A stretch of 63,968 nt of DNA, counting the filler, from Lenisia limosa (lineage: Eukaryota; Protista; Breviatea), in NCBI GenBank assembly GCA_001655205.1. It is 13 parts of 13 records of this genome, joined end to end, with 100 filler letters (N's around TTAATTAATTAA, not from the genome) between each part and the next. Parts side by side here need not be neighbours in the genome. Positions count along the whole stretch, not along the records: positions 1 to 26,122 come from LPNZ01006518.1; positions 26,223 to 29,259 come from LPNZ01002786.1; positions 29,360 to 30,923 come from LPNZ01002518.1; positions 31,024 to 33,431 come from LPNZ01001105.1; positions 33,532 to 36,875 come from LPNZ01003936.1; positions 36,976 to 39,154 come from LPNZ01008096.1; positions 39,255 to 42,377 come from LPNZ01010805.1; positions 42,478 to 45,646 come from LPNZ01009417.1; 5 more parts are not named here. The stretch is one strand, 5' to 3'. Below are positions 22,901 to 61,900 of the stretch, one piece after another. The notes below the pieces were generated by a model. The model did no database searches. It was not told the DNA's origin and worked only from the letters and a program-made list of their open reading frames with translations. A program made the translations under genes and the position numbers. The stretch's first letter is position 1, and each line of letters starts with the position of its first letter.

Positions 22901-25900
22901 TACACTTAGCACATATCGATTATCTATCCATGTCCACTACAAAAAAGCGAACATTATGCATCTGAAATCGTATTTTGAAGCATGATCAAATAGGATTCTG
23001 ATGAAACATATTGTATCATATAATACACCAGACCTGTTTCTAATTTGTTTAGCACGGATTGAGTCTTTGGAAGCTGAAGTGGCCGAAGCGCATGAGGCAA
23101 CAGATGCGGGTACCAGGGGAAGATGGTTGTGTGATAGAGAAAAGGAGAGAAGAGGAAATGGAAGTGAGGGAAAGGAGAGGGTTAAGAGAAAGATGTCAAA
23201 AATTGGACAAAGCGGAGGGGCGATGAAGAAGAAAGTGAAGGTGAACAGAGGGTATAATAGCAGTACTTTCCCAACGACCAAAAACAACAAACAGTAATAT
23301 CACCCCTTCCCCAGTAATCACACGATACTTTCTAATTCCAAAACCCCTGTTTTACTTTCCTCACTATTCTCAGAGGAGAAGGAGAAACACAAGGTGATGA
23401 AAGTTGTTGACGAACTCAAAGTCAAAGTTGGCGGGAAAGGTTTCTTTATATAACAAGTATTTCGGTTTTAATCTTCTAGATCGAGGATTTGGAGGATAAC
23501 ATCGTTCTTATCAAGGAGGACAAATCTGTGGGTTTCTCAAGTTTCCGTATTTGGAGGTTTTGACGGCGTAAATTACCTTATTAGGAAGTTGAGGACAGGG
23601 TAGAAGCGCGCAATGAAGAAATTGAAGGCTTGAAGGAGACAATGAAAGAAGAGAAGGACCACAGCGACCACCTTCTTGTGAGTGCAATTATGAATGATGG
23701 GCAGATTAAAAAGACAATACCCTACCTCTTGACACACGCTGTATTTATAGCTTTTTACGATATTAGGATGAAGCTGAAGAGGAACACGCAGCAATTGTCA
23801 CAGAATACGAGGCAAGACTTGAAGAAGTATGCAGAATAACTACCCCTTCCAATGCAATCTTGCGTTTTTGAAAAAATTATTCTTTTCTCGCACCAATACC
23901 TCTTATCAAGTTCCAGACCTCTTCACTGCTCAACGATATTACCGTCAAGTCTGAAGAACTGAACATTGTTTGGCGGTGATTAGTGTTGTTGGAGTTGTCA
24001 GACTTCTGATGCCCGAAAAAAAAATCGTACAACATCTATCATCTTACATGCCTCGCCACTCACCCCCAATGGACAGTGCTGCAGAAGAGGGCCTGGGCTT
24101 TGTTTGTTTGTTGTTATCAATCCTCATGTGTTGTCTGCCAACAGAGTTGATTGTGTTTTGTTTCAAATATTTTCCAATTTTACCCTCCACCCCTCACCCC
24201 CCAGCTCATCGATGCTGTGACAGACGAAAGGGACGATATCCAGGACAAGGCCGCCGAGCTAGAGGAACAGCAGAGGGAGGCTCTTGCTAAGATCGAAGTG
24301 AGATGGCCCTTCCGCTCTCATTAAGTAGATAAATAAGAGGCCTTTGTCGCTCATGTTATTCTCCAATTGCCAAAATATTTTGTTCAATTTATTGTACAGT
24401 ATGATAATTATTTAATTGAAAACGATTTCGCTCTCCTTGAAATACCCATTATTCATCTCATTCTGACATTATGCCAGGAGCTTAAGACCCAAATTAGCGA
24501 ACTCAATGAGGACGTTGTTTCGAGAGACGCAACAATCGCCGAAATTACTGAGACGACCAATGCTAAAATACAGGTGGGCTGACACTGTCAATGACTACAT
24601 CAAAATTAGCATTATCATAGAATTGTTTACTTCATGAGCTCTCCCATTTGCCCAAACTACCCCCTTTCCTTCCTCAATTTCTCCGTCACGCCTGTAGTCC
24701 CTTGAAGAGTCTCTAAGCAATGCGGAAGAACTCGCCTGCGAAAATGAGACCAAATACGAAACTGAGGTTGAGGTTTGTGGAGTACGTTGCTTTTTTTTGG
24801 AAGAAGAGAAATAATATGTGTATCTCTTTTTACATTAGAAATCTAGGGAAACAAATAAATACAGAGGGATACCATAAAAATAATTAACATAACTGCTGCT
24901 GTCTTCTCTTCATGTCAAGGGCTACTTGGGTGATTATGATATCGCAAATCTGTATTTCAACACTTTCTATCACAGCAATAAATTGTATATCACACATACC
25001 ATGTATTATATTTTGTAATCCACCAATATACTGTGGTATTATTAACCTACCAAGTTAGTAGAAAATTCGGAACGAAAAGAGAACTGCTTACATGAGAACG
25101 TCAAGCTTACTATCAACTTCGTTTACCCCCCCCCCCGCCCAGAATCNNNNNNNNNNNNNNNNNNNNNNNNNNNNNNNNNNNNNNNNNNNNNNNNNNNNNN
25201 NNNNNNNNNNNNNNNNNNNNNNATGAGGAGGCAATTCAAACTCTCAAGTTGGCGTTTTACTGCTGTGAATGCTACATACTCATGACGATGTTTATTTGTT
25301 TCCCTAGATTTCTAATGTTAATATTCTAATACTCATGTATGACGATGTGGACTGCTCTTCTTTCTTTTTTTTTTTTTTTTCTCATTGCGTCTTTATTGCC
25401 GTTGTACTTTTATTGATAATCTCTTCAGACTCGAACATGAACAAACGGTGTCAGACATTCAGACTATCAACGACCAAATAAAGCAAGAAATGGAAGAAGC
25501 ACATGAAGAGCGGATTTCCTGCACTGTGGGGGGTGGCAGTTTTATAACACTTAACTTTGACCCTATTTTTGCTTATTTTCACTAACATACTTAGTAGTAT
25601 TGATACGATTGTGAAGCCCCCCCCCCCCCTCTTTTNNNNNNNNNNNNNNNNNNNNNNNNNNNNNNNNNNNNNNNNNNNNNNNNNNNNNNNNNNNNNNNNN
25701 NNNNNNNNNNNNNNNNNNNNNNNNNNNNNNNNNNNNNNNNNNNNNNNNNNNNNNNNNNNNNNNNNNNNNNNNNNNNNNNNNNNNNNNNNNNNNNNNNNNN
25801 NNNNNNNNNNNNNNNTAGTGTTCAAACATTTTTTAAACAGAGAAGAAACCCAAATAGACTGCATCAACAACTGTATGACATGAGCCAACATCTTCAACTT

Positions 25901-25909
25901 AAATTTTAG
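16972..25909 (+). CDS. WD40 beta-propeller plus Ser/Pro linker plus long coiled-coil protein; more than 35 exons
   Basis: WD-type exons (HASAVRALAVHDGFIWTASSDFTVKSFD; LHGHTDAV; YLVSASEDGLVSIWD; HTTAITGL; DHTGGLTALCLVPSGRLWVASRDHTI), a Ser/Pro exon at 21025-21122, then heptad-rich exons (EVEDRVEARNEEIEGLKETMKEEK etc.) to a TAG ending at 25909. Confidence 0.88.
24076..24204 (+). repeat. Family D element forming the 3' end (acceptor) of an intron
   Basis: Matches consensus GCTGCAGAAG..CTGGGCTTTGTTTG..TGTGTTGTC.GCCAACAGAGTTGAT..TTTTCCAATTTTACCC..CCCAG and ends at the AG of exon LIDAVTDER. Confidence 0.85.
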
Positions 25910-25917
25910 CGCACATA

Positions 25918-25999
25918 TACAGTGACAGGGAGAGTATTTACCGATTTGCTATGTGATTTTCCAAGGAAAATCGGTCAAGACTTATCCCGGTCACTGTAC
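25918..25999. mobile_element. MITE family B copy
   Basis: TA-CAGTGAC...GTCACTG-TA, 9 bp after the WD40 gene stop codon. Confidence 0.88.
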
Positions 26000-26178: not shown

Positions 26179-26222
26179 NNNNNNNNNNNNNNNNNNNNNN
26201 NNNNNNNNNNNNNNNNNNNNNN

Positions 26223-27054: not shown

Positions 27055-29143
27055 CTGGAAGGGACGTCCCGGGTGAGTCGCGACTTCGGAACTTCTGTAG
27101 GGCGGAATTGCGACATCAGACGACCGACAAGGGTGGAGTCGTCTGTTTTGGGCTGGGAGGGGGGTAAAATTGGAAAATTTATGAAACAAAAAAGCCCTGT
27201 TGGCTGACAACACACGAGGGTTGAGAACAACANNNNNNNNNNNNNNNNNNNNNNNNNNNNNNNNNNNNNNNNNNNNNNNNNNNNNNNNNNNNNNNNNNNN
27301 NNGGATTGTACGTACATAATATCGACCCTTGTCCCAATAAACTCTTGTTATGCCAGGCTCACAGCAGAGGTCAGGCTGGTGGGAGGGGGTACCGTGGATC
27401 TGAAAGATAAGTTAGGAAAAAAAAAGGCGGGGGGAACGAGCAAATTTTCAGAAATTATTGATTCAATTCCAAATAGGACAAGAGATCAAGGTTACCAGAC
27501 AGGGGGGGTTTCAAGAGAGAAAAAAGTGGGAACATGCCGGAGAAAATGTCCAAAAAATAATCATCTTGCTGACCTTGGGATAGTGGTGGAGGTGGAAGAG
27601 GGGCTGTAGCGGAAGTTGGGAGTGTTTCGAAGGGTCAGGGCAAACCTATGGGATGTAAACAGTTAGACAAAAAAAAAAAAAAAAATTTTTTTTTCAATAA
27701 ATGAGACTCTTCTCATTAACCGGCACAAAGTCCCACCACAAAGTAAAAAGCTTATTTCCCCTCGGACCGAGAAGGTCTTGACGAGGACGAGAGGTCTGGG
27801 GCCTCGTACTTCCTGGTGGTAGTACGGGCAAGCGTCGGGGCCAGGAGTGAGCTGAACCTCGTTTCCTTTTTGCTGTCGTCTGCGGCACCGGAGATGGTGG
27901 CAGCCTCGGGTGTTACCACAGCCACGTCCTGTTGGAGGTCAAACACAATGGAGGCAAAATTGCTTCAAACAAACTGTTTATACTATAGAGTAATAATGTC
28001 TAAATGAGGACTCAGATGATAAGTTGTCGAAATGATCAAGGAGAATAGAGTACCTGGGGGGTGACGAAGAACGTGGAGGCCTTGTGATGGTGTTGGTGGG
28101 CCGTGACAGGGATCATGCGCTTCTTCAGCCCGAAGGGCTCAGGAATGCCAAGCTCCTGGGGGGGGGGNNNNNNNNNNNNNNNNNNNNNNNNNNNNNNNNN
28201 NNNNNNNNNNNNNNNNNNNNNNNNNNNNNNNNNNNNNNNNNNNNNNNNNNNNATGAAAATCATTTAGCATCCTACACGGTTTAGGCTCAATATCCCTTTT
28301 CATTCCAGCAACCTACATTTGAAATAGCGAGTCGGAAGGAGCTGATGGTCGAGTTTTCGTAGAGATTGACCTCACCCAAAATGTTATCATCCTTGAGCGT
28401 TAAAAGAGTTATATAATAGGAAAGCAGGCAATCTTACACTGATACAAAAAAAGCGTTATCCTCTGAAATCTGACCCCCCACAGTAATAGCCCCTTTGTAG
28501 ACGCGGACTTTGCGCAGCGGTGTTTCCGGTTCGGGTTCGGCTGAATGGTCAATCTCTGCGATAAAAATGGAGCAAATAGAATGAGACAGTATGTCATATA
28601 TCTCAAGATTATTGTTGATCACAAGTTATGACATGGGCTTCCCTACGGTCCGAAAAAGACCGTCAAAATACCGACAATTATCGAGAATTTATCGGGAAAT
28701 TCAGTCTATTTTGGGACAGTAGGGAAGCCCCAGTTATGACGTTCAAAAATGTGGGAATTAAAAGGCTTTCAAGCAGTTTAAAAAGAAATGCCACTTCATC
28801 GGGGTCACAGAACTAGACTAAGGCGGAACAACTTTTAGGATACGCAGTTCTCTCGTCCAAAGGTCCTTTATTTTACAAGGCTTAATCCTCACCAACCATT
28901 GACAATTAAACAGACGTCAGGCTGGGAGAAGACTTCGAGCGCAGGAGTCAACTAGCGGGGGTGAAGGGGTCTTTGATATATAGATATATAAATCTATTAT
29001 TGCCTTTAAATGATGCTTATGGAATGATAGTCCAATACGGTGTCTGAACGCCTTGCGGTAGTGCCTACCTCAGTCCAGCTTTCGATCTCGTTGTCTGGCA
29101 CGGGCTTCAGTGTGCACGTCGGGCTTTGCTCTAATTCCTGTGG
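27055..29143 (-). CDS. Hypothetical multi-exon protein fragment with low-complexity regions
   Basis: Exons with AG/GT ends: ELEQSPTCTLKPVPDNEIESWTE, EIDHSAEPEPETPLRKVRVYK, DDNILGEVNLYENSTISSFRLAISN, PKTDDSTLVGRLMSQF. No family recognised. Confidence 0.6.
28634..28731. mobile_element. MITE family A copy
   Basis: GGGCTTCCCTACGGTCC...GTAGGGAAGCCC. Confidence 0.88.
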
Positions 29144-30427: not shown

Positions 30428-30815
30428 AGGGTATTGTACCCAGGCAGCGTTGATTTTGGGCCTTTTTTTGTTTCGTAAATATCCAATTTTACCCCCCCCC
30501 CCCNNNNNNNNNNNNNNNNNNNNNNNNNNNNNNNNNNNNNNNNNNNNNNNNNNNNNNNNNNNNNNNNNNNNNNNNNNNNAGATGATTAGTAGCGGACGAT
30601 TTAACGAGAGAATACAGTTTTCCAAAATAGCAAATTTTTCAGTATTTCAATGTCAGCAAAATTAATTCGGTGAGAAAATAGTGGTTTCATTCCAAGATAA
30701 AATATTTCACACAAAAGTATTAGTAATATTACTAATACTTTTGTATCTAGATGATTAGATACCATTTATATCTATATTACTAATAACCTCTATTAGTAGT
30801 ACGAACCATCTAGAT

Positions 30816-33531: not shown

Positions 33532-36500
33532 CCGCGAAGTGGCTGTGCAACTATTGCGGCAAGTGGTGGTCAAGTCAGAGGACGCGGCTCTGTTCCTTGA
33601 TGATTTTGCTGAAATTCTGAGTCATATCACCCGGGATCCTTCGCCTGATGTTCTTCTGGTTTGTGGGGTGTTGGTGGGTAGTTCGAAGTCTCATGAATAG
33701 GGCTTCACGCAAGTACTGAAAAGATTCGAAAATATCGAAATATATCGAGTATTTTTCGAGAAATTCAGCCATTGTCTGGATTGTAGTGAAGCTCTACTCA
33801 TGAATATCGGAGGTTTACCTGAGGCTTATCTTTGATGAGGATATCCCTAGGTTGTATCCAAGGTTTATCTTGATTTGGGTTTATCAAGGAATTTTTGAGA
33901 ATTTATTGAAAGTTATTTTACCTTGTTTGTGACAACTTTTGACTATTTTAGGAGTCTTGTGCCCTGGTATCGGCACTTTCTGAGGCCTGTCCAGATCGCA
34001 TCGGGATGCTTGGTGGAAGACTGGCTGCAGTGGGAGGGGGGGGGGGNNNNNNNNNNNNNNNNNNNNNNNNNNNNNNNNNNNNNNNNNNNNNNNNNNNNNN
34101 NNNNNNNNNNNNNNNNNNNNNNNNNNNNNNNNNNNNATAAATGTATACCATCATCATCAGTGTCACCACCACCACCATCATTTCAATCATCAACATTCAT
34201 CATCATCATTATGGCAAAACAATGATTCATTATCTGCGATCGTGGATCAGTGTTGATAATGGTAATGATATGATGGTGGTGGTGATGATAATGATGATAC
34301 TGATGATATAAATGATAGTGATGATAATGATAATGATGGTGGTGGTGATGGTGATGAAGACGATGAATGATACTGATGGTGATACTGATGATGAGAGATG
34401 ATGATGTTGGCGATACTGATGATGATACTGATGATGATACTGATGATGAAAGATGATAATATTAGTGGCTTTTATGGTAGAAATTGATAATTATTCATTT
34501 TCTCTAATCCCCCCCTCCTATCAGTTTACCCCCCTTTCAGATTTTAAGTGCACCTCTGAAGAATAAGAGGTTCAAAGTCCGCCTGNNNNNNNNNNNNNNN
34601 NNNNNNNNNNNNNNNNNNNNNNNNNNNNNNNNNNNNNNNNNNNNNNNNNNNNNNNNNNNNNNNNNNNNNNNNNNNNNNNNNNNNNNNNNNNNNNNNNNNN
34701 NNNNNNNNNNNNNNNNNNNNNNNNNNNNNNNNNNNNNNNNNNNNNNNNNNNNNNNNNNNNNNNNNNNNNNNNNNNNNNNNNNNNNNNNNNNNNCTTACCC
34801 CCTCTCCCCCCAGGCCCTCGGGGCAATTCTGGTTAAAGCTGGTCACGGTGTTATGGATGAAGCTATCCCTCTGGTGGTCCAATTCACCGCTGATGCCAAG
34901 CCGAATCTCAGGATCGCTGCTGTTGAGGTTGGTGATTGTTGTGACAGAGTGCTGTTGAGGTTGGGGTTTGTTGTAGCTTGGGCTTTACTTCGGTACGAAA
35001 AAGACCGGTACATTATTGATAGTTTTCGAGGATTTATCGATAAATTCAGACTTTTTTCGAACCGAAGTGAAGCCCTAGTTGTAGCCCTCGTGGTTTTGGG
35101 CTTTTAATTTATTTTATAATTTTTTCATTTCTGGCCCAGGCATCTTCTATTTTACCCCTTTTACAACCAGGTATCAGCTCTTCTTCTTACAGAGCATCTC
35201 GAAAGGGTCTCTATCCAGCCCAAGCTTCTACCTGTTATTTTGACTATGGTGGGGAGTTACAGAAAGCTGTTTGCACAGAGTTGTAAGGCAAATGGTTGGG
35301 TGAATTAATATTATACTATAATTCAATATATCTTATAAGCGTGATGTTGTGGACGGGGGCTGCAGAAGCGACTGACCTGGGCTTTGTGTTTTGTTGTTAT
35401 CAACCCTTAGAATTGATTTGGGCTTTTTCCTTTCATAAATTCCAATTTTACTCCTTTCAGATTATTCGGTTCGTGATTAGTACCTTCACGCCAATATTCT
35501 TCATCTAAATTTTCTTCGTTTTACTCCCCGTAGATTGGAGACCCGGTCGAATCGGTCCAAAAAGCTGCCGTTTCAGCGATTGACAGAGTCGGTGCCCTCT
35601 ATGAAAAGGACAACAAAAACGAGATTGCAGATCAAAGAGGTGGGAGAGGTTTTCCGTTTTTTTTTGAGGAAATTAATTGAAATCATTAGTAAATAAAGTT
35701 TGAAATAGATAATAATTTTGGAAAATAGTGTATTTTGTTTCATTTGATTAAAATTGTCTAATTAACTGCTTGGAGTTCAAGATAATAAATACGAGATCAC
35801 AGATCAGAGAGGTGGGGTTTTGTTGGCCTTTAGGGAACGTTTAGACTTGTTTTTTTGAAAACACTTTAAGCTTTTAGCTTTAGCTTTTAGCTTTTTTATA
35901 ACACTTTTAGCTTATTTATAACACTTTTAGCTTATTTATAACACTTTTAGCTTATTTATACACTTTTAGCTTATTTATAACACTTTTAGCATTTTTTCCT
36001 ACACTTTTTGCTGATGTTGTTTATTTGTGAATTGTTTTTCTCACATTTTTAGCTTATGATGTTGCCAAAGTTGAGCCTCTTCTCTTCGCTCCATTTTCAA
36101 GTAAGAAATCTACATGTTATGTTGTCGTTAATCCTATCAAAACGGGATATATGTCAAAATGTTGACCATATTTCCTAGTGAAGCATAGTCCTACTTTTGA
36201 GTCAAAATGATGAGGAAAAGAGGGTTTCTCCCAAGTGCATTGGCTTTATTAATACCTCACAGATTTCCCGTTTACCCCCCCTCTTTCACACAGGAGTGAT
36301 GGGATGCGGTGCTCCACAAGCGACTGGCTTGGGCTTTGTTTGTTTTTGTTGTTCTCAACCCTCGTGTGTTGTCAGCCAACAGAGTTGATTTGGGGTTTAT
36401 TATGTTTCCAAAATTCTTCGTGTCCCCTCTCCCCAGGATTTTTTTCTTTTAATTTGCTTGTTTCCCCCCATTACAATTCCATTATTTACGCTACAGGCCG

Positions 36501-36975: not shown

Positions 36976-39154
36976 CAACCCCTCGCCCACGCAAGTTGAG
37001 GGCCTTGTTCGGATATGAGTGTCCTCATTATATACTATACTACATATGATATACATATGTAGTATATGATATAAATATTTTCTGTGGTACAGTTCAACCG
37101 CTGGATCTTTATGATCCTAGTCTAAATAGAGACTTTCCTGCAAAATAATAAAGAACATTAACCCCCCCACGCCGGTTGAGGGCCTTGTTCGGACATGAGG
37201 CTTGCGGCGGCGTAGGTAAGACTAGCCTCTTGAATGTGGTCCGGACGGAGGGTTGCCATCAGNNNNNNNNNNNNNNNNNNNNNNNNNNNNNNNNNNNNNN
37301 NNNNNNNNNNNNNNNNNNNNNNNNNNNNNNNNNNNNNNNNNNNNNNNNNNNNNNNNNNNNNNNNNNNNNNNNNNNNNNNNNNNNNNTTTATGCAACAAAA
37401 ATAAAGCCCAAAATCAAGCCAGTTGGTTAGCTAGAACACACAAGGGTTGGAAATAACACAACTAAGTCCAGAGTACACAGGCATGTGATATCGAACATCA
37501 AAAACAATACACACAAACATATCGAACATCTAAAACAATACATACACACATATCGAACATCTAAAACAATACCTGCAAGTTCGTCAAGGTACCAGCTGAA
37601 GACGGCACACAAGTTTCCGGGTTGTGGTGCTGCAGCCAAGCCCTCCAGGATGGCTCGTCGTTCGATATCTGAAATTATGAAAAAAAAAAAACCCCNNNNN
37701 NNNNNNNNNNNNNNNNNNNNNNNNNNNNNNNNNNNNNNNNNNNNNNNNNNNNNNNNNNNNNNNNNNNNNNNNNNNNNNNNNNNNNNNNNNNNNNNNNNNN
37801 NNNNNNNAACAAATCCCAGGCCAGTCGCTTCTGCATCACCGCATCCTATCACTCCAGCGTTACATAATAGGAAAATTTATTTTAAAAAAAACCCAAAACC
37901 AACTCTTGAGTGGGGGGTTATTAGAAAATCTATGAAACAAAAACAAAACATGACCACAATCAACTCGAGCAACACACGAGGGTGGGGGGGATATTCGATT
38001 CCTGGGGGATGGTAAGGGTAAAGCTAACTCCACTTTATCAATAACATTACTTCCAGCTCCCCACTTAATCACTAACATTACTTACATCAATAACATCCGC
38101 CCACCACGTCACCCAGTCTAGCCAGGCCCGGGTCTTGACTCAGAGTCGCCGCCGCCTCGATGCTCTGAGTTATGACGTCATCAGCAGGGGGCTCTCTGCG
38201 GCCGCGCGGGGATAGTCGTCGCGATTGTGGCTGTCTGCANNNNNNNNNNNNNNNNNNNNNNNNNNNNNNNNNNNNNNNNNNNNNNNNNNNNNNNNNNNNN
38301 NNNNNNNNNNNNNNNNNNNNNNNNNNNNNNNNNNNNNNNNNNNNNNNNNNNNNNNNNNNNNNNNNNNNNNNNNNNNNNNNNNNNNNNNNNNNNNNNNNNN
38401 NNNNNNNNNNCTATATTTATGAAATAAAAAAAGCACTAAATGGGGGTACCGATTACCCCAGCCCCTCCCCCGAAAATAAAAACTATGAATGTATATGTGC
38501 AGTGAACGGGACAAGTCTTGGCCGATTTGCTATGGTTTACCAAGGAAAAATCGGTAAAGATCCCGGTCACTGTATATCATATACTATATATAAAAATATC
38601 AGATAAAGTATAACAGTATATTACACCCCCCTCCCCGCGCACGAGGGCTGGGCATTCGGCAAAAACGAGGATTTGGGAGGAACAGTTTTTGGAGGCTGAG
38701 TCAGGAGTCGAACCAGTGTTGAGAACCCGGGGGTGCTGGAATCGTGCCTGGGGTGTAAGCATTATTGACTACTGTAAAGATGGAAGACTTATGTAACAAA
38801 ATAAAAAAAAGAAGCCCGNNNNNNNNNNNNNNNNNNNNNNNNNNNNNNNNNNNNNNNNNNNNNNNNNNNNNNNNNNNNNNNNNNNNNNNNNNNNNNNNNN
38901 NNNNNNNNNNNNNNNNNNNNNNNNNNNNNNNNNNNNNNNNNNNNNNNNNNNNNNNNNNNNNNNNNNNNNNNNNNNNNNNNNNNNNNNNNNNNNNNNGGGT
39001 GAGAGTTTGTCAAGAGTTGTTTTTAATTTAACTGTTTTTTTCATTTCTCTTGAATGTTTGAATTGACCCCCCGCCCTCACATTAGTCCGGCGATAAGCAT
39101 GAAGGCGGTGCGGGAATTTGAGGTCATGCCTCTAGTCAGAAGCTGCAGAAGAGT
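36976..39154 (-). CDS. Hypothetical multi-exon helical protein fragment
   Basis: Exons DIERRAILEGLAAAPQPGNLCAVFSWYLDELA, DDVITQSIEAAATLSQDPGLARLGD, ARFQHPRVLNTG..ECPAL and LLQLLTRGMT..IAGL with AG/GT ends on the minus strand. Confidence 0.6.
37490..37570 (+). repeat. 31-bp tandem repeat x3
   Basis: ATATCGAACATCTAAAACAATACA.ACA.AC units. Confidence 0.85.
38498..38574. mobile_element. MITE family B copy
   Basis: CAGTGAACGGGACAAGTCTTG...CCCGGTCACTG-TA. Confidence 0.82.
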
Positions 39155-39254: not shown

Positions 39255-42200
39255 CCGCATCCCAACACTGTGAGAAAAGGTCTTGGTAATGATATTTATA
39301 GGTCTAAAGCCCAATACCTGTTGTGCTATGTCGTGGCAGGAAGTCAATGAAAACTTCGAGGAAACTTGTCTAGGAAAATAACCAACAGGGAGAGCGGGAT
39401 AGTTTTCTGATCTTTTTCAACCACCCCCCTACCATGGCCTCCACCAGGTCCGGAATGTCCAAAACCGCCTCCAGGCCGGGCTTAACATCGTCCCATTGCC
39501 CGTCGCCTCGTTCGCTGACAGAAACAAACAGAGCCACCAATCTTGGGGGGGGGGGGTAAAATTAGAAAANNNNNNNNNNNNNNNNNNNNNNNNNNNNNNN
39601 NNNNNNNNNNNNNNNNNNNNNNNNNNNNNNNNNNNNNNNNNNNNNNNNNNNNNNNNNNNNNNNNNNNNNNNNNNNNNNNNNNNNNNNNNNNNNNGGGGTA
39701 TTCATTTGGAGCGAGAGAGACTGGCAATATCGGACCATTTTCTCACATCATATCGAAACAGAAAAATGGTCCAAGAAGTGGCACGATTTACCCCACCAAT
39801 TATCATCATCATCACCACCATCACCACCACCATCATCATCATCACCATCATAATCATCACTATCACGCATTACCATCACTATCACGATCATTACCATCAC
39901 TATCACGATCATTACCATCATCATCATCACCATCACTCTCATCACCATTACCACCATCATCACTGACAGTATCTCCAATTCCAAATGACCCCACTGTGGC
40001 ACAAAGTCTAAGGGCGTATTGGCAGTGCGCCGTCTTCGTTTTCCCCTAGTGTCTGAAGAGGGAAATTCCGAGTCCGCCTGAGACGTAATTTGAAGGGGAG
40101 AGGGGGAGGGGGGGNNNNNNNNNNNNNNNNNNNNNNNNNNNNNNNNNNNNNNNNNNNNNNNNNNNNNNNNNNNNNNNNNNNNNNNNNNNNNNNNNNNNNN
40201 NNNNNNNNNNNNNNNNNNNNNNNNNNNNNNNNNNNNNNNNNNNNNNNNNNNNNNNNNNNNNNNNNNNNNNNNNNNNNNNNNNNNNNNNNNNNNNNNNNNN
40301 NNNNNNNNNNNNNNNNNNNNNNNNNNNNNNNNNNNNNNNNNNNNNNNNNNNNNNNNNNNNNNNNNNNNNNNNNNNNNNNCGCTAAAGTTCCTCAGAATCA
40401 CAGCGGAGAGCTCTGCCAGCACCCCGAGTCGAGATGCTGATGCCTGGGTCCATGACAACTCAGGGGGCCCTAACGGGGGAGGTTAAACGAAGACATAAGC
40501 TAGGAACACACAGTATAATAGTAAAAAGCTCTTGTGTGATATAGGTACATATATATTATAGTATGTATATATAGTGATTGGGATAAGTCTTGGAGATCAC
40601 ATAGCAAATCGATACATATACATGTATGTATATATAGCTATACAATCTCGATATTGAACTAAAATTTGCCTCAGATTCAGCAACCTACAGTTAGCCGGTT
40701 GCTTGACACTGGGTTTATTGTCGAGTATAGCGTCCAGCGGATTTCCAGTGTAATCTAAGGGGGAGTTAGGATTCTCAGTGTAATCAAGGTGAGGGGAGGG
40801 GGGTGAAATCATGTTTAATATAGAGCCAAAGCCGTCCACACAATCACCCTTAAAAGAGATATTGGATTATAATAATATAGAATTGTATCAATCATATGCC
40901 TCACAACTCTGTGCACAGCTTTCTATGTGCCTCCCCAGCATATGACTATGACTAGGAAATAAACATGGGTGTATCTGCTATAGGACTGAAACGTCATTGC
41001 AAAAAGCCCCTTAAACATACTCGACGTTCGCAGGGCGTGTGCAGAGAGGGAAATTAGAACAGATGGATGAACCAATTGCTTGAGAGCTGCTGTCTGTGGG
41101 GAGTAATTGGAAAATGTTATAAAAAAGCCCAAAATCAACTCGGTTGGATAGCAACACACAAGGGTTGAAAACAACAAAAGCAACAAAGACCAGACAAATT
41201 GACGTGCATTATAGCTTTGTATGTAATAGGGCTTTACTTCGGTTCGAAAAAGAAAGGTGAAATATCGATAGTTTTCGAGAATTTATCGAGAATTTTTTTT
41301 GAACCGAATTGAACCCTAATGATTGCAAGTTTGACGACCACCTCACGTCGGATAATGGAATCGCCTCAATTCGGTGCAGTGAGGGAGACGAGAATTCCTG
41401 GGGACTGGGGGGTGGGTTAAATTGAAAATTTATGAAACAAAAAACCCCCCCAAATCAACTCTGTTGGCTGACAACACACGAGGGCTGATAACAACAAAAC
41501 AAACAAATCCCAAGTATGAAAAATGGGGGGTGCAGGTGGGGTACTAGAAAGTGTAATAATAAAATAAAACAAAAAAACAAAACCCAGAATTAACACTTTT
41601 GGCTAGCATTTGGGAAACACCGAAGAGTAAAAATAACAAAACAAACAAAGCTTAGGCAATCGCTTCTGCAGCGCCATCCCATCACTCCAGCGAGGTGAAC
41701 ATAATTGTATTTGGGGGAGGGAGGGGGGTAAAGTTAGAAAATTTCAGACAGATAACTGACACACACATTAACCGCATACCCCCTTCCACCTAGATAGAAA
41801 CAAGGATTGCTGCTCGGCTACCAGACCATTTTTGGGCACTGTAGAGTGAGAGAAATCGGCTCATCTAAAAAGGGGGTGGCAGCGTCTGTAGTTTAAAAAT
41901 AAAAACGGCTAAAAGTGGTATTTTTATGAACAGAATTAAAAAATAAAAGGTTAATTTTGCAAACACAGACGTTTTTTTGAAGAGCCGCCCCATTTTTAGA
42001 CAGACCGGGAAATCTTTTCACTCATCAAATTTTCTCTTTTTTGTTGAGGTGGCGAAAAGAAAATAATAAGCAGGAGCACAATAGGACAAAATTTGAAGAA
42101 CACCAAACAACCAACCATTTGCGTTTTGGATCAGTCTTGATACCTTCTTGAACTTCGTTTTCTCCATTTTCGGTTTCAACTGCTGGGTTACAACCAGTTT

Positions 42201-45497: not shown

Positions 45498-46187
45498 CTG
45501 GGAGGTAAGTGAAAATGGAAAATTTATGACACAAAAAAAAAAGCCCAAAATCAACTCTGTGGGCTGACAGCAAAACAAAGCCCAAGCCAGTCGCAGGAAA
45601 TGGTCTACATATGAAACATTATATTGGATTGAAGTATCTGGCCAAANNNNNNNNNNNNNNNNNNNNNNNNNNNNNNNNNNNNNNNNNNNNTTAATTAATT
45701 AANNNNNNNNNNNNNNNNNNNNNNNNNNNNNNNNNNNNNNNNNNNNCAAGATCCTTCTGTGGTTTCCACCACTTTTTGAGAGAATTCAACTTCAAGATTG
45801 TCTAAACACCGGAATTGGCAAAAAAACCGGAATTGTGAACGGACGCATATACTCTTATTCAATACTTATTGTTTATTTATCATTGCTATATCATTATTAT
45901 TATTATTGTATTGTATTATTAGTATTATCATAAATTTTCCAATTTTACGAGCGGTGGTGGGACTCTTCAAAGGCTGGCTCGGGCTTGGTTTTTTGTTTTT
46001 GTCATCAGATTTTTGTCTAGTTTTATCGGTATTGCTCGTGTTCGTTATTGCTTGTTTTTTTTTTGTTTGTTTATAGTTTCAGATTATTCAGTTCGTGAGT
46101 AGTAGCTTTACGCCAATATTCTTCATCGAAATTTCTTTCGTTTTACTCTTCCTTTCCCTATCTCTCTTCTTTTTTGTTATTATCAGG

Positions 46188-47592: not shown

Positions 47593-48490
47593 GTGGGAGG
47601 GTATTGTAAAGAAATACTTACGCCATATACTTCATCGANNNNNNNNNNNNNNNNNNNNNNNNNNNNNNNNNNNNNNNNNNNNNNNNNNNNNNNNNNNNNN
47701 NNNNNNNNNNNNNNNNNNNNNNNNNNNNNNNNNNNNNNNNNNNNNNNNNNNNNNNNNNNNNNNNNNNNNNTCCCCTCTCCACAACCTCAGTTGAACTTTC
47801 TGTGTCTTCGCCCCCCCAGGTATGCTGCTGACATATGTTGCTCCCCCCGTAATTATCCATATCTCAATTTGCAGTCAGCCAACAGAGTTAATTTGGGCTT
47901 TTTTGTTTCATAAATTGTCCAATTTACCGGGCTTGTTTTTGTTCTTGTGTTTTTGTCGTCTGGCTTTTGTCTTGTTTTAGCGTTGGTTGTTCGTGTTTGT
48001 TATTGCTTCTTTTTTGTTTGGAGTTTCAGATTCTTCGGTTCGTGATTAGTANNNNNNNNNNNNNNNNNNNNNNNNNNNNNNNNNNNNNNNNNNNNTTAAT
48101 TAATTAANNNNNNNNNNNNNNNNNNNNNNNNNNNNNNNNNNNNNNNNNNNNACAATAAACCGAGGGGGGACGACTGGACTTTCTTTAATGGCTGCAATGT
48201 GTCGTGTTTTAAGATGCACACCATCTTCTCATTCTTGCTCTCTTCTTTTTACGCAATTTTGCTTTTGCTAATTCCCATTCCATGGGTGCATTTTTTGTAC
48301 TGTAGCATATGACATATTTCCATTTGAGTTGTAACCTATTTTGCTTTTGATTATCCTTTTTTACGCTATTTGCCTGTGTTACTGTGTGTGTTTTATTCTT
48401 TGGTAAATCCTAGTTTCGAAACAAACCTCTAACTGCAATTAGTTTCTTTTTTTTCATTTCTATTTTGTCATTTTTTTTATTCCATTGCAG

Positions 48491-54379: not shown

Positions 54380-55099
54380 GTTGTGAGGAATGATGCAGCA
54401 CTCTCGTCGCGTGGTTAAGCTACACAGGCGCATCGCATCGTAAGTCCTATTGATTTCTTCGGATTTCCATAAAATTGCATGTATACATGAAAATAATGGG
54501 TCCCTCCCGTCAAGAATCCCTCTGCGCCGCAGTGTACAGTCTGGTGGCGAAAGGCTATATTTTATCTAATTTAGCATATTAGGTATTGAAAGGCCCAATT
54601 TATTCTTTCTTAGTATTTTGTTTTTATGATATTACGACCACTCCTTCCTCCTCGCGCCTCAGATGCCCCCCCGCTCCCCCTTGAGCCGTCGGTCTTACTA
54701 CTTGTGTCGTAGTCGCTCGCGCCAAGGTAGCTTCTGGTTTTTTCAGAGGGCTTGCCTCTTTCGTTTGACTATCATCCCTCAAATTGTATCCTATCTAGAC
54801 AAGTCCCACTTTGACATAATAAGTACATTATAAACAGCTAATCTTGAGCCTCGGGAGTGCTGGGGTCTAAAGCATGAGCATATAGCAGGGGAAGAGGAGG
54901 GGGGGGGGGGTAAAATTGGAAACTTATGNNNNNNNNNNNNNNNNNNNNNNNNNNNNNNNNNNNNNNNNNNNNNNNNNGGCTGACAACACACGAGGGTTGA
55001 TAACACTAAGCCATCCCATCTCCATACTCACCAACCATAAAAGTTTTAATAAAATCTGAAAGAATCCATGAGGGTTTCCGCTGAATAAATTTTCTAATT

Positions 55100-56158
55100 T
55101 TACTCCCCTCCCTCACCTTCCTCTGAACTTGGGGCATCAGGTAAAGGAGAGGGGGTCTCAGGAATCATTGAAACGTCCTTGGAAAAGTGGTAGTCCTCAA
55201 CGTTTTTCTCCTCTTTCACATCGCACTCCATTTGTTCCCCGGAGTCTACTGGGGTTTGCTCCTCTGGTGAAGCGCATTGTTCTTCAGTTTTGATTTTGAC
55301 TTCGGGTTCCAAGGTTTTCTGTCGTTCTTCCTCGACATTACTTGTTTCCTTTTCCGCATCAATTATCTCTGGTTCCTCAGTCTTCATAGCCACATTACCA
55401 TCTTCTGTCTCTTCATCATCATCCATGCTCACCATCTTCTCTTCTTCTTTCTTCTTCTCTTTACCTTCCATGCTGATCTGATCTTTATCCTCTTCTGCCT
55501 TATTCTCTTCAACAATGACCATATTATCCTCTTCTTGCTTCTTCTCTTCAACTTGGCCAAGAGTTGCTCCATTGTCTTTCCCCTCAACTTCCTCTTCGGG
55601 CTTTGTCTCTTCCTTCAACACTTCTTCGCTTTCTTCCTCTTTCTCTTCTTCAATTTTCAGGTGGACATCCTCTTCTTTCATTTCTAACTTTTCTTCTAAC
55701 GTGTCTTCTATCTTTTCTTCTACCTTTTCTTCTATCTTTTCTTCTATCTTTTCTTCTTCTCTTTTCCCTTCAATCTCGCTGTCAATCTCCATCTTTTCAA
55801 CTTCAATTTCCATCTTTTCAACTTCAATTTCCATCTTTTCAACTTCAATTTCCACCTCCACCTCTTCCTCCATTTTCTCACCTTCTCCTGTCATTTCAGT
55901 TTCTTCCTCCTCCTTGGGACTCTCAGCCTTCACGTCCTCAATCTTACCTTCCTCCTGCTCTTCAAGATCTTCCTCTGGTGCTTCAATTGCATCATCTTCC
56001 ACTTCCATCTCCATATTCTCAACAGGTAATTCCGCTTTCACCTCAGAAGGCTCAGCCTCTTTAATGCCCCCCCTCTTCTCTTCATTGAGCTTGCTCTTCC
56101 GCTCCAGTTCCTCCTTAATCCGGGCCTCCTCCTTCCAGCGCGCGCGCTCCGCCATCAT
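55100..56158 (-). CDS. Large Glu/Lys-rich low-complexity exon; gene probably continues in small exons to about 54400
   Basis: 352-aa open frame with internal EVEKMEI repeats; likely donor GAAG|gtgagg near 55118. Confidence 0.8.
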   Translation of the reverse strand: MMAERARWKEEARIKEELERKSKLNEEKRGGIKEAEPSEVKAELPVENMEMEVEDDAIEAPEEDLEEQEEGKIEDVKAESPKEEEETEMTGEGEKMEEEVEVEIEVEKMEIEVEKMEIEVEKMEIDSEIEGKREEEKIEEKIEEKVEEKIEDTLEEKLEMKEEDVHLKIEEEKEEESEEVLKEETKPEEEVEGKDNGATLGQVEEKKQEEDNMVIVEENKAEEDKDQISMEGKEKKKEEEKMVSMDDDEETEDGNVAMKTEEPEIIDAEKETSNVEEERQKTLEPEVKIKTEEQCASPEEQTPVDSGEQMECDVKEEKNVEDYHFSKDVSMIPETPSPLPDAPSSEEGEGGE

Positions 56159-56656
56159 NNNNNNNNNNNNNNNNNNNNNNNNNNNNNNNNNNNNNNNNNN
56201 NNTTAATTAATTAANNNNNNNNNNNNNNNNNNNNNNNNNNNNNNNNNNNNNNNNNNNNTGTTATCTATTACATGTACATGTATTATATAATGCTATATAA
56301 TATGATACGATATTTTCATACTAATTTCATGGGTGTTTCGAGTATGGGTGGGGGGTCTGAATAGTAATCTTTTTAATGTTCCTGGGGAGTTGTCAGCAAA
56401 CAGAGTTGATTTTGGCTTTTTTTTGTTTCATAATTTTCCCATTCCCACCCCCCTCCCGTACACTGGAGTGATGGGATGCGTGATGNNNNNNNNNNNNNNN
56501 NNNNNNNNNNNNNNNNNNNNNNNNNNNNNNNNNNNNNNNNNNNNNNNNNNNNNNNNNNNNNNNNNNNNNNNNNNNNNNNNNNNNNNNNNNNNNNNNNNNN
56601 NNNNNNNNNNNNNNNNNNNNNNNNNNTCCAATTTTACTCCCTCCCCACCCCTCCAG

Positions 56657-58018
56657 TAACTTCCGAGACTTCCTGCACGTTCCAGCTCTGGACTTCGCCT
56701 TCACGCGCAACGCCTATGTGGGGGGCTAGTGTTATTTCATACAGCTATTCGATATTATTTGTGATATTTATTTATGTGAGGGGATATTCTAGTTATATTT
56801 AGATAAAATCACATAGATAGTTATATTTAGATAAAATCACATAGATATGAATATTTATTGACATTCGGGGTGATGATATATGTAGTGGGTGAGCTATTAG
56901 CTTGCTTGTCTATATGGGGAGGCACATAGAAAGCTGTGTGCACAGAGTTGTAAGGCAAATGATTGGGTGAATTAATATAAAACTATAATCAAATATCTCT
57001 TATATGTGATAGTGTGGACGGCTTCGGCCCGATACAACCTTATTTTTTCACACTGGTGATCGCATACTTGCGATCGCACTCAGACCGGGGAACTTATATA
57101 TATATTATATATGATATACAGTGACCAGGATAAGTCTAGACCGATTTGCCACATGATTTCCCAAGGAAAATTAGACAAGACTTATTCCGATCAGTGTATA
57201 CATATCCAAACAAATGTACATGTAGTATACGTATAACGCGGAGGGATGGTAATTTGTTTATGGTATCCTTATGTATTTGTTTCTCTAGATTTCTAATGTG
57301 CAACCTGTTAAACCATCAATGTTGCTTTTGAATGACATTTTAGGTCTACCATACATACCTGGATAACACCCAGAATATTGACGTTGGTATGCGGGACGAA
57401 TTGGGCGGATACTATAATCAAATATCTCCTATATTTTGGACTTTTCGGTTCGAAAAAGAGGGTGTTTATCGATATATCTTCGAATATTATCGATATTTTA
57501 CCGTTAAGTGAAGCCATACTTACCGTGATGGTGTGGATGGCTTCGGCCATATACAACTTTTTTGCTCATCTGTACATGTTGGGGTGAGGGGAAATACTGA
57601 CACACTGGCCTGCTACCCCCCTTTTTTTTTTATCCTTTTTTTTTTGACTTACCCCCATAGGAGGAATTCAGGTTATCGGAGAGTCAGTGCTCAACATGAT
57701 CCTCGACCGTATGGGGGGGGGGGGNNNNNNNNNNNNNNNNNNNNNNNNNNNNNNNNNNNNNNNNNNNNNNNNNNNNNNNNNNGTTGAAGTGAGACATATG
57801 ATAAACTCAATTTCAGACAATTGTATTTCAATTTTATCAATTAATTTCCTCAAATAATTTATTACACGGAGCCTTGAATGTCCCGATAAATCCTTTTACT
57901 TCATATTCCCTACTTATCAAGTTTAGTGTATTATTTGTTTCTCTCTTATTTTTTCAACTCACTTTGACAGTCTGTGGCCCGAATGGTTATATCACCGCAA
58001 CCAGTCCAAGAAATGCCG
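56657..58018 (+). CDS. Hypothetical spliced gene fragment
   Basis: Exons NFRDFLHVPALDFAFTRNAY|gtgggg and GIQVIGESVLNMILD|LCGPNGYITATSPRNA|gtgagg. Confidence 0.5.
56915..57050 (+). repeat. Family C element (most complete copy)
   Basis: GGGGAGGCACATAGAAAGCTGTGTGCACAGAGTTGTAAGGCAAATGATTGGGTGAATT...GTGGACGGCTTCGGCCCGATACAACC. Other copies near 35254, 40826, 49290, 50098-50290, 51735, 57395, 62575, 62940, 63500, 63785. Confidence 0.88.
57117..57199. mobile_element. MITE family B copy
   Basis: TA-CAGTGACCAGGATAAGTCT...AGACTTATTCCGATCAGTG-TA. Confidence 0.82.
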
Positions 58019-58949: not shown

Positions 58950-61900
58950 ATCTTCGTCACGTTTCCAGCCACCCTAAACGATCAGATTTCTTGGTGGTGG
59001 TGGGGGGGGGGGGNNNNNNNNNNNNNNNNNNNNNNNNNNNNNNNNNNNNNNNNNNNNNNNNNNNNNNNNNNNNNNNNNNNNNNNNNNNNNNNNNNNNNNN
59101 NNNNNTGTTGGCTTAGCATTTGGGGAGACTGTTGGCATTGTGCTTTATTACTTACACTACGGCGATCGATTTGGTACTCAGGTGTAGTTTTGGAAATTCC
59201 ATAAAAAGTTTCAATTTCCATAAAGATATTTGGGATTCCCATATATTTTCTATAAATAAGGAAAACCCAACTTTTTCGTAAAAATCCCAAGTCAATGCGC
59301 CGTAGTGCAGCAGTTGAACTACTCTATCCTCCATTTAATCCCTCACTCAAAAAATTGATAAACTAAACAAGGTGGGGCGCTTATAAGTATATTGATTCTT
59401 TTAGATTATGATAGCCCAGATAAAGAATATGATACCAAATATACAATGACCAGGACAAGTCTTGACCGATTTTCCTTGGGGAAAACATGTAATACATATC
59501 ATATACCGCTTTTACAAAGGAAAAGCTTAATTCTGTCAGAATATGAAAAACCAAATTGAGAAGTCCTTAATCGTATACTACTACATACCGCTTTAATAAA
59601 GGCTTTCATTCTGTCAGATTGAGAATCCTCGATAATGTCACCTTGAATATCCTGGGGGAGGGAGTGAAATTGATACGGGGTAAAATTGGACAATTTTGAC
59701 AACACACAAGGGTTGATANNNNNNNNNNNNNNNNNNNNNNNNNNNNNNNNNNNNNNNNNNNNNNNNNNNNNNNNNNNNNNNNNNNNNNNNNNNNNNNNNN
59801 NNNNNNNNNNNNNNNNNNNNNNGAAATAGGAAAATCTATGAAACAAAAAAAATAAACAACCCTGGGGGGAATAACTTGGCCTATTTCAGGGTGAGGGGTT
59901 AATATGGTAAATTTATAAGGAAAAAGCCTAGCAACAAAAGAAACATGTAAATTGATGAGATAAGTCTAATAATATTGGTGCGTGGATATTATTAGGACTT
60001 CCCTTGAGTCCGAAAAAATACCGGTAAAATATAGATATTTATCGAGATTTTGTCGACATATTCGACACGATTGACACGATTAAGCTCAATCATGCATCAT
60101 CAAGTTCTCGAACAAGTAAAGCAGCAAATATTTCGTACCCCCATATTCTATTTCCAAAAAAGCAAACCTTTCTCGTGTGGTTGTAAACAATGATACCTTC
60201 CATTTCGTCAGACTTGCCCCAAAATCTACAGGAGTAAAAAACCTTGTTGCAGGAAACGTGGCCACAATTTATTAGGATCTGAACCTTTTTTGCCTGTTAA
60301 AAAAAACGCGGTGATATATTTAAAACGTCTGTAGTTGCAAAAATTGACCTTTTATTTTGAAATTTTAATAAAAAACACCACTTTTCTTAACTGTAACTAG
60401 AGACGCTAAATAAAAGTTTCTCTATTAATTAATTTTGATACCCCCTTAAAATTGCCACTTTCTCCAATGTAGTCATAACGAATTATTCTTGCACACACAA
60501 ATAATACGTATTAGTCAAGCTCCGGACAACATTCAAAATTCCCAGACAGCTTGAGTTTTTTTGTTAACCTTGTTCATTTTCAAAATTTCCAGAAACAGGG
60601 ACACTCAAAATGATCAAAAAAGTTTCTAGATAAAATTATAATTATGATCTTGGATCTGAGACACATGGGATCCACTTACCATATTAGACAAGTTCAAATG
60701 CCTTTTGGCAAAAAGCCCCTCATAACAATTACANNNNNNNNNNNNNNNNNNNNNNNNNNNNNNNNNNNNNNNNNNNNNNNNNNNNNNNNNNNNNNNNNNN
60801 NNNNNNNNNNNNATACATTGGAAAGGCAATTAGGAAATAAACCTCAATCGAGACTTTCTCTTGATGATCTTAGTTTCAATCGAAACTTTCTTCCTCGTGA
60901 TGATCTTAGTTTCAATCGAGACTTTCTCTTGATGATCTTAGTTTCAATCGAGACTTTCTCTTGATGATCTTAGTTTCAATAGAGTAACATCCTAGTTTCA
61001 ATAGAGACTTTTTCTTTATGATCCTTGTTTAAATCGGGTATTGAATCTTTATGATTATAATACAGTCTCTATTGAAACTAGGATCATCTTTTTCTTGTAA
61101 CTAGAATTTTAAAAGGGGGGGGGGTGTTCTTGTAATTGCAAAGAATCTGGTTTGTTATTCTTCAATTTCAAACCACATGTCATCGCCTTTTTTATACTTA
61201 TTTGCATTCATGTATTATTAGAAGTGCCCGCATCCACGCCTCTTTCAAACCCCTCAAGTCTTTCTCAGCCTCTCTAGTGTGTGCTGCTATTATTTGTTTT
61301 ATAAAATACTCTCTATAAAATTTAGTTGAGAGGATTTAGACCCTTGCAAAGTATGAGCTAGGAGGCATATATATCTTGAAATAAGTATACCTTCAACCCC
61401 ACCCCCACACCCGTCATAGTTACCACCAGTAACACAAAGGACGTTTTTGACGGTAAACGTTCCGGCCTGCTTTTCAGATAGGCAGTATTCGTGGGCACTT
61501 TTCTCACCGTCTCGACCAGCCTGAGGGGGGGGGGTANNNNNNNNNNNNNNNNNNNNNNNNNNNNNNNNNNNNNNNNNNNNNNNNNNNNNNNNNNNNNNNN
61601 NNNNNNNNNNNNNNNNNNNNNNNNNNNNNNNNNNNNNNNNNNNNNNNNNNNNNNNNNNNNNNNNNNNNNNNNNNNNNNNNNNNNNNNNATTTTGATTTTA
61701 GCCCCCCTCCCACCCCTTCTAGAACAATCATGGCCACAATAAGACCGTCCACATCTAGTGAGGAAAGTGGTGGTGCTGCGAACGTGGCGAAACCGTCACT
61801 TAAATCTCGAGTTACCTAGAGGGGAAATTGTGAGGGTTGGCTGTACTGAGGGCTGGTAATTCTGAATTAATTGCCTAAAGTGTACCATCTTTTGAGACCT

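Follow-up and report, generated by a model that had tools for sequence, protein, structure and literature searches.

The introners of Micromonas pusilla, in the available text of the two papers that describe them (PMC3879977, PMC4540971), are short non-coding repeats found only in sense and lacking both TIRs and TSDs; GC donors are present in 53% of IE-A1, and reverse splicing was proposed. Most of these introners (6,112 copies) form whole introns at new positions, beside 463 remnants that have lost their splice sites. TE-derived introners carrying one splice site are also known (PMC9860276, PMC12130899, bioRxiv 2020.10.14.339549). In the sections of these reports available to us they span the intron, mostly with TIRs or TSDs, and both introner surveys discard any repeat that falls short of one or both ends of the intron; families of the kind described below would thus go unlisted there. 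Fungal sister stwintrons, as outlined in PMC12403724, are repeated intron units tied to the splice signal of another intron; they split a donor, need two splicing steps and have near-terminal inverted repeats.

The window, by which we mean the whole stretch of 63,968 nucleotides of Lenisia limosa DNA analysed here, contains a repeat, family D, whose closest known counterpart is the set of sense-only nested introner remnants of Micromonas (PMC3879977, as far as its available text goes). Like these, D is sense-only, has no TIR and no general TSD, is often partial, lies inside pre-existing introns and is nested or merged with other copies. The first-pass annotation had D as its best candidate for an undescribed system, but sense-only introner remnants within older introns are already on record in that paper. 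Unlike the Micromonas introners as presented there, D was seen in no whole-intron copy; its copies lie where longer introns end on the 3′ side, keep and supply the acceptor, and form tandem stacks. It differs from the TE-derived introners in neither spanning the intron nor having TIRs or a general TSD, and from the stwintrons in lying at acceptors with a single RNA product. In the literature covered, main texts outside most subscription journals, we found no repeat family described as supplying acceptors of pre-existing introns in tandem. Figures S16–S17 of PMC3879977, on nested and merged introners, may bear on the novelty of D.

Family D is a repeat of ~145 nt with sharp ends and a high copy number across an intron-rich genome, and it is built like an intron, running from a donor-like GC start through a branch motif and a C-tract to AG. 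A profile made from the window copies gave 17 matches at E ≤ 0.05, spanning 24072 to 59718, where a dispersed repeat had been annotated, and none at this threshold in the reversed window (best E 0.38); additional copies were found as tail-only fragments. Because the window consists of small scaffolds strung together with linkers, and D copies are often interrupted by gaps, the counts given here are lower bounds. Genome-wide, 5350 contigs aligned to one D copy. Truncation at the 5′ end is frequent, with the 3′ end retained, and the depth of the head in the genomic run is ~0.45 of that of the body. The median pairwise identity of 77% indicates that the copies are old, and marks of insertion may therefore be eroded. 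The terminal AG and the last ~10 nt vary among copies, as does the sequence separating the branch motif from the AG, and the AG may often be the host's own. On this point the acceptor cassette of the first-pass annotation is not supported as it was put.

We found no inverted repeat at the ends of D, no TIR within a copy and no poly(A), and copies of the window stand head to tail in tandem, all as the first-pass annotation had it; such tandems also turn up in genomic contigs outside the window. Past the 5′ edge only an acceptor-like loose-end consensus continues (agreement 0.43 over 99 contigs), and past the 3′ edge only a C-run followed by an AG-like sequence (0.57 over 146 contigs). As far as the flanks show, then, D does not form the terminus of some longer LINE or Helitron, an identity that the annotation had itself raised against its proposal. 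Its similarity to a second family, H, is modest but significant (p = 0.004), and it has no homology to a third, E (p = 0.23). No relatives were found in viral contigs or in metagenome contigs, the three 20-mer matches of a second scan being due to chance. D-like pieces occur in the polyA run, which cannot demonstrate a free D transcript.

All 16 window matches with an assignable host strand (one is unassignable) are in sense, in 8/8 host genes, as are all six copies in three genes of independent contigs. The tail 16-mers of the window divide into 10 sense, one antisense and one unassignable. The antisense tail, 55088..55117 (+), overlaps a G-rich donor at 55116 and is the same sole exception, near 55090, that accompanied the original claim of an almost invariant sense orientation. 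Control elements in the window are mixed (sense:antisense 6:12 for MITE A, 7:3 for MITE B and 2:1 for family G). Families E (14/14) and H (5/5) are, however, equally sense-only, and D is not the lone system it had been taken for. C-tracts in D-free introns are strand-symmetric (76 sense, 86 antisense), from which it follows that C-tract homology alone cannot give the sense bias of D.

Within the window, the end of D lies ≤30 nt from an acceptor in 6/10 measurable copies compared with 3/22 MITEs (Fisher p = 0.013), in line with the association with acceptors first noted. Family E shows no such enrichment (2/13, p = 0.40 against MITEs) despite its strict sense bias, and selection without targeting can therefore explain the acceptor position of D. 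The first-pass reading is supported in part, namely in the strong sense bias and the enrichment at acceptors against MITE controls. Nothing was found to support the suggestion that D improves splicing.

RNA contigs show splicing into D tails at 39542, 41094 and 41405, in three dynein introns, so that these tails are working 3′ splice sites, and RNA at D introns shows the final single product only. The first of these tails, 39542..39569 (−), provides the acceptor of intron 39994–39542 (RNA record 9); it had been entered, at 39545, simply as a sense copy. The second is a 5′-truncated copy, 41094..41201 (−) (RNA record 10). The third belongs to a composite, 41405..41762 (−), in which an old acceptor-like tail (41762–41720) is followed by a decayed full D (41691–41553) and a 5′-truncated D (41515–41405) ending at the acceptor in use. 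The position 41398 previously given for this acceptor has to be abandoned, since the RNA record length gives 41405 and 41398 yields a stop. A full-length copy, 36293..36437 (+), has a sharp 5′ edge with an acceptor-like remnant before it; it is in sense, as noted earlier for position 36290, but in RNA its AG (36437) is skipped in favour of an acceptor at 36496, and its branch motif has decayed.

Most D acceptors rest on the gene model built in this analysis, with the support given in brackets below. A copy with a shortened head runs to acceptor 24204 at 24070..24204 (+) (profile; spliced frame open) and is flanked by a 12-nt direct repeat (24056–24067 and 24190–24201). On the other strand, body and tail, the 5′ part lying in a gap, run to acceptor 27153 at 27153..27232 (−) (profile and frame), a 5′-truncated copy to 42666 at 42666..42738 (−) (profile and frame), a tail to 45030 at 45030..45072 (−) (tail match and frame) and a copy with an internal deletion to 45498 at 45498..45596 (−) (profile and frame). 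The tail fragment at a predicted acceptor, 44072..44095 (−), was absent from the earlier list. Tandem pieces at 37669..37983 (−) comprise body and tail (37983–37909), tail (37906–37866), head (37858–37808), a gap and a further tail, which reaches an acceptor that the gene model places at 37669 and not at 37673 as before. The head-to-tail tandem 56380..56656 (+) has body and tail, a head at 56464, a gap and a tail to acceptor 56656. In the tandem fragments of 59652..59927 (−), a second branch/C-tract module with acceptor 59652 comes after the last fragment. Away from assigned acceptors, profile matches include a body and tail preceding a gap, with the host gene unassigned (30430..30503 (+)), and a body whose tail runs into a gap (37387..37472 (−)); a body and tail with a gap within, 54895..55009 (−), is sense to its host.

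Other copies are joined to families E and H. The 5′ end of an E copy, 35249..35352 (+), is the working donor of intron 35249–35533; to it is fused a D copy, 35352..35460 (+), and the 3′ part of an H copy, 35440..35533 (+), supplies acceptor 35533, the whole intron being made up of these three families. The D copy, rightly recorded as sense at 35354, has an intact branch motif and AG, but use of this AG would give stops. At 45928..46160 (+) a D tail abuts a complete H copy downstream, and at 47870..48051 (+) a 5′-truncated D without AG runs straight into H. Among interior D tails, 10/13 have no usable branch and AG module and three appear intact but are unused. The 5′ flanks of D resemble old acceptors, and do so with tandem cases excluded too (13 window copies, p = 0.001; seven independent copies, p = 0.007).

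The heads of D and E score like real donors (43rd–68th percentile) and above 96–99% of intronic GT/GC decoys, on a score that is mostly G-richness and was applied post hoc; the D head is donor-like by this score alone and its use as a donor was never seen. The tail is more than the host's acceptor consensus, since 8/154 acceptors lie within three mismatches of the 16-nt tail, all of them D-associated, against none of ~1000 background windows. Overall, G-run donors show little tendency to pair with C-run acceptors (rho 0.18, n = 147), and within genes the tendency is gone (p = 0.34). No copy spans a whole intron: where the intron start is visible there is no donor ≤10 nt from the head, and every such intron has its donor at least 74 nt upstream of the D 5′ end. 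D thus shares with introners its repeated copies, its sense orientation in genes and a working 3′ splice signal, without reaching both intron boundaries, and the first-pass view that it is not a whole-intron introner holds. A protein search with one HEAT exon gave no match.

Helitrons have CTRR at their 3′ end as a rule, and Pol III promoters follow A- and B-box patterns. We found no CTRR end with a hairpin (four copies, both strands) and no subterminal inverted repeats, and on the sense strand no A or B boxes; nor was there a tRNA or Rfam match that would mark a SINE head. The TIRs of a MITE are likewise absent, and its fixed-length TSDs have no general counterpart in D. Flanking duplications gave no general TSD (3/22 copies, permutation p 0.12–0.14, the D copies being old), compared with 6-nt duplications in 3/6 MITE A copies. 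A structured RNA, ribozyme, snoRNA or snRNA was rejected, as there is no Rfam match and D folds no better than its shuffles (z ~0); covariation was found neither for D (with one structure string partly off-register) nor for the E hairpins. The D head has a short open frame that resembles a Rossmann glycine motif, but Pfam was negative for three copies and a captured exon was discarded.

We tentatively favour, at a little less than an even chance, sense-only introner-like insertion combined with selection through which copies bearing an acceptor are retained where intron meets exon. D likely spread as RNA by a transcription- or splicing-coupled route, and copies with an intact acceptor likely persist mainly at exon boundaries through sorting by selection. 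Excised RNA would enter transcribed DNA or pre-mRNA on the sense strand, in the manner of reverse splicing, which would make insertion strand-specific. Copying from the RNA 3′ end would often leave the 5′ end truncated and would produce no regular target duplication. Where the donor is weak or lost, an exonic copy would be harmful and a deep-intron copy would steal the acceptor. Survivors would be those in the short branch-to-AG spacer, with the old acceptor left upstream as a remnant, or those with a decayed tail. The spacer of a terminal D would then be a tolerated landing site, at which tandems accumulate at intron 3′ ends. Against introner-like insertion stands the absence of whole-intron copies, some of which a mobile intron should leave. 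Further points against it are the variable sequence before the AG, the one antisense tail, the three intact-looking unused tails, a convincing 21-nt flanking repeat in one independent copy and 9–12-nt ones in two window copies, the lack of conserved RNA structure, the post hoc donor score, the age of the copies and the gene-model acceptors.

The main rival, which we consider rather unlikely, makes D a non-autonomous retroposon that depends on the enzyme of a non-LTR element (LINE). Pairing of its C-rich 3′ tail with a C/G tract that has been nicked would prime reverse transcription, so that D lands in the C-tracts of acceptors and of earlier D copies, with antisense copies removed by selection. 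The 5′ truncation with a kept 3′ end and the variable sequence between tail and AG fit this; as the AG may be the host's, the latter fits C-tract priming better than introner-like insertion. The antisense tail coincides with a donor G-run, the target expected in mirror image, and a 21-nt repeat flanking one independent copy, in L013, exceeds all cross-pair nulls, with two weaker cases of 9–12 nt in the window. Tail-to-target pairing is described for the RTE, CR1 and L2 clades in the text available from PMC6007223, where SINEs of such LINEs similarly have a simple-sequence 3′ tail matching the target and 5′ truncation. By comparison with these, D lacks Pol III boxes and a general TSD and has a near-absolute sense bias, and no partner LINE was seen in the part of the genome examined. 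According to the available part of PMC3088655 on Alu exonization and mammalian TE bias, the orientation of SINEs close to splice sites can be skewed by selection; there, as here, the repeat brings a cryptic acceptor with it, and its orientation in the vicinity of exons is shaped by selection. In mammals, however, TEs are scarce around acceptors and selection disfavours the orientation that carries the acceptor, whereas in D that orientation is kept and used. The retroposon also has to contend with the strand symmetry of C-tracts, given that antisense copies, even headless, are nearly absent, and with E, strictly sense without a C-tail.

A bolder form of introner-like spread seems improbable to us, namely that the spliceosome itself inserts D, H and E, as mobile introns, at existing splice sites, with D aimed at the branch-to-AG spacer and replacing the host acceptor with its own. 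Later copies would re-hit D, and a small number of RNA elements, of a kind that introner surveys are built to overlook, would act as a ratchet that remakes intron 3′ ends genome-wide.

Tandems and chimeras are typical of rolling-circle elements. We give still less credence to a strand-blind DNA element without TIRs (Helitron/Helentron, or a tyrosine-recombinase element moving as a circle) with orientation and position due to selection alone, although the tandems and the E–D–H chimera (35249–35533) would suit it, a terminal copy in L013 is followed by 9–14 nt matching the head of D, as a circular intermediate would leave, and the reverse strand of the head is acceptor-like, so that antisense copies may be harmful. 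Such an element lacks its end signals here, and selection would have to purge almost all antisense copies of three families from introns in which MITEs lie both ways. Non-autonomous Helitrons/Helentrons such as DINE-1, in the available description of PMC4067079, are similarly non-coding, without TIR-bounded ends and prone to tandems, but have the subTIRs, 3′ hairpin and TT/AT target that D lacks, D having instead a strong host-strand bias. Least probable of all is the view that D is no insertion element but an intron 3′ end passed among C-rich acceptors, through ectopic gene conversion or through recombination mediated by cDNA, in which direct homology would yield sense orientation and 3′-end position for free and would suit the variable 5′ ends and upstream acceptor remnants, but which sits badly with a sharp common 5′ edge and one dominant, very-high-copy sequence, both indicating a defined master unit, and with the same polarity of E away from acceptors.

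Whether spliceosomal introns are still mobile by reverse splicing is an open question, on which the chief evidence comes from sense-only introners that lack the marks of a DNA transposon. Several sense-only, very-high-copy families lying beside strand-neutral MITEs, which act as an internal control, make this question testable at scale in Lenisia. D points to a class of element that published introner pipelines, in the parts of them available to us, remove by design. If D is a LINE-driven retroposon, it would be a striking yet more ordinary exaptation of a splice signal. D represents a route by which repeats can turn over splice acceptors and leave the protein unchanged.

Family D, a repeat of ~145 nt with a donor-like GC start and a tail of branch motif, C-run and AG, was found by profile search (E ≤ 0.05) at 17 places in the window and at none in the reversed window. 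All 16 matches with a known host strand, spread across 8 genes, lie sense to the host, as the first-pass annotation had held; counted by gene this is 8/8 (two-sided p 0.008). Matches to 16-mers of the tail only are 10 sense and 1 antisense, with 1 lacking a host assignment. The sense-to-antisense ratios of the controls in the window are 6:12 for MITE A, 7:3 for MITE B and 2:1 for a further repeat, family G. Distance to the next acceptor was measured only for copies with a gap-free path to it (10 of 17 for D, 22 of 32 for the MITE type), and here the proposed association with acceptors is borne out, 6/10 D copies against 3/22 of the MITE null ending within 30 nt (Fisher p 0.013; rank test on distance p 0.003). 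A reading of the tail as a generic acceptor was ruled out: it occurs in 8 of 154 acceptors, every one D-associated. C-tracts are about equally frequent on the sense (76) and antisense (86) strands, and C-tract homology in DNA alone is therefore insufficient for the sense bias.

Small scaffolds of an intron-rich eukaryotic assembly, with N-flanked linkers between them and many gaps, make up the window. Its 153 introns come from a self-trained gene finder and hand curation, in which 28 predicted exons were removed and 8 boundaries changed. Pfam, over 28 exons scanned, backs kinesin, muskelin, WD40 and ankyrin genes; of the hosts named in the first-pass annotation, dynein (AAA_9, E 0.004) and DNAAF5 (E 0.001, 0.012) gave weak matches below the cut-off and WDR60 was unconfirmed. 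A codon model trained on D-free genes, and blind to splice signals, clearly favours the assigned strand by summed score in 10 of 11 scaffolds, with a tie at 45747–48051. The D-free, well-assembled regions 1–23900 and 48152–54400 hold ~110 introns; copies of D are concentrated in scaffolds that are rich in gaps and have GC-rich exons. Window-wide, G-runs follow many donors and C-runs precede acceptors, both coinciding with assembly gaps; within genes the two are uncorrelated. A branch-like YTNAY motif, its A mostly 9–10 nt upstream of the exon, is matched 69 times among the 154 acceptors. The ankyrin-repeat exon 53533–53727 contains a ~96-nt exact tandem duplication.

An out-of-sample set is supplied by intron-rich eukaryotic contigs found within G001, a prokaryote MAG (44 contigs scanned). 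These contigs (C39, C43, C46, C69 and others; L013–L016, L031, L035, L036, L043, L046) are binning contamination, and they have D, E, H and both MITEs in common with the window and no unique sequence. D is sense in 6/6 matches with a host, a seventh having none assigned, and 4 of the 6 end within ~30 nt of a predicted acceptor. Here the host strands are less firm than in the window: they were assigned from open frames bounded by AG and GT and from a weak match to GalNAc kinase (E 1.2), and a codon test run exon by exon agrees in 9 of 14. At L013:5347–5503, the exon after a terminal D copy has 13 of its first 14 nt matching the D head, adding three in-frame codons; this single case is compatible with an intermediate, circular or tandem, that crossed over at an AG, or with an exonized head. 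A DnaJ-type gene at L014:4062–5498 has about nine T-rich inserts of 20–26 nt that start with GT, some apparently without a terminal AG; window introns are far longer (at least 42 nt), and the inserts may come from another eukaryote or form a class of tiny introns. At L014:291–1100 (Pfam E 1e-5) and L016:1200–1960 there are decayed DDE_1 (pogo-like) transposase frames.

RNA evidence, from single low-depth contigs, covers 4 D-bearing introns, and in three of them a D tail supplies the 3' splice site used. Record 9 splices 39995–40070 to 39458–39541, and record 10 joins 42116–42180 and 41021–41093 across 107 nt, the summed length of two exons (49 and 58 nt). From these joins and spacing, together with the frames, acceptors 39542, 41405 and 41094 are in use. 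At the full-length copy at 36293, RNA covers 36497–36525 and is absent over 36430–36481; the AG of D is skipped and its branch motif lost. The remaining terminal D acceptors are assigned from open spliced frames. Acceptors 44072 (−) and 47508 (+), in different genes, are identical over their last 12 nt, and a D tail precedes 44072. A usable branch and AG module is present in 15/15 terminal tails, where the AG is there by definition, and missing from 10 of 13 interior ones.

The D head starts GCTGGAG and scores as a real donor except for C at +2; no copy examined begins at a donor. At the 3' end the AG follows the branch motif and C-run by 10–22 nt of varying letters. The 30 nt on the 5' side of the junction resemble an old acceptor minus its AG, above background and MITE flanks (20 junctions set by eye, p 7e-6; 13 non-tandem, p 0.001; 7 independent, p 0.007). 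Target-site duplications are not general (3 of 22 copies, p 0.12–0.14); the flanks of one L013 copy carry a 21-nt repeat exceeding all nulls. Searches of D gave no TIR, Pol III box, Helitron end, Rfam match or covarying structure. Two public runs of one study contain the window: X1, of genomic type and perhaps the assembly's source, and X2 (polyA). In X1, 5350 contigs align to the copy at 36293 and summed depth, which is not copy number, rises from 33 to >200,000 across a sharp 5' edge, the head standing at ~0.45 of body depth; hundreds of distinct flanks are displayed, and D likely has thousands of copies genome-wide. Loose ends upstream of the head have only an acceptor-like consensus (99 contigs, agreement 0.43), and those downstream of the tail a C-run and then AG-like letters (146 contigs, agreement 0.57), so by its flanks D is not the end of a longer conserved element. 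Identity among 18 copies has a median of 88% to the majority and 77% pairwise, with a maximum of 91%; the copies are old, and a TIR DNA element of 2.3 kb (L013:1416–3755) interrupts one of them.

D is one member of a set of sense-biased families, the counts in the window being 14/14 for E, 5/5 for H and 6/7 for F. H is related to D (p 0.004) and also terminates in acceptors. Family E (~145 nt; 15 window loci, e.g. 56916–57057, 40793–40936 and 51738–51863; also L013, L031 and L036) lacks an acceptor module at its end and shows no enrichment near acceptors (2/13, p 0.40). Because E is nevertheless sense-only, two effects separate: strand-specific insertion, shared by the whole set, and a filter on position that acts on the acceptor-bearing member. 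E is tandem-prone, with a head that is likewise donor-like by score, one copy interrupted by MITE A, and two short hairpins without covariation support. In a DNAAF5-like gene, intron 35249–35533 is made up of E, D and H joined end to end and nothing else; its working donor, at 35249, derives from E and its acceptor from H, and it is a candidate for an intron made wholly of sense-only families.

The reading we favour, tentatively, is that D spread by an introner-like RNA route together with selection. Insertion would be into the sense strand only and copying would start from the 3' end; the survivors would be copies whose new acceptor coincides with an exon boundary or has decayed. For sense-only introners, reverse splicing into the strand that an R-loop displaces has been put forward (PMC4540971, PMC10996645) and is still a proposal. 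A LINE-driven retroposon primed by the C-tail is possible, though less probable; it accounts for the truncation, for the variation in the spacer and for the few repeats in the flanks, but three families would have to have lost nearly all their antisense copies. An element of the circle type, blind to strand, fits more poorly and is unlikely, and ectopic conversion, also a poorer fit, is slightly less likely again.

The nearest described case is that of the Micromonas introners, and D works likewise: they are sense-only, 53% of IE-A1 have GC donors, copies may be nested or merged, and 463 partial remnants lie within older introns or outside them (PMC3879977). Introners are defined by spanning the whole intron, which D does not, and large surveys exclude such repeats by design (PMC9860276, PMC12130899). 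D is also the opposite of mammalian TEs, which are depleted near acceptors (PMC3088655). In the main texts of the literature searched we found no account of its pattern. On one window and a few contigs, and with a mechanism that is proposed only, family D is real and unusual; it is a variant of an already known kind, new in its form.
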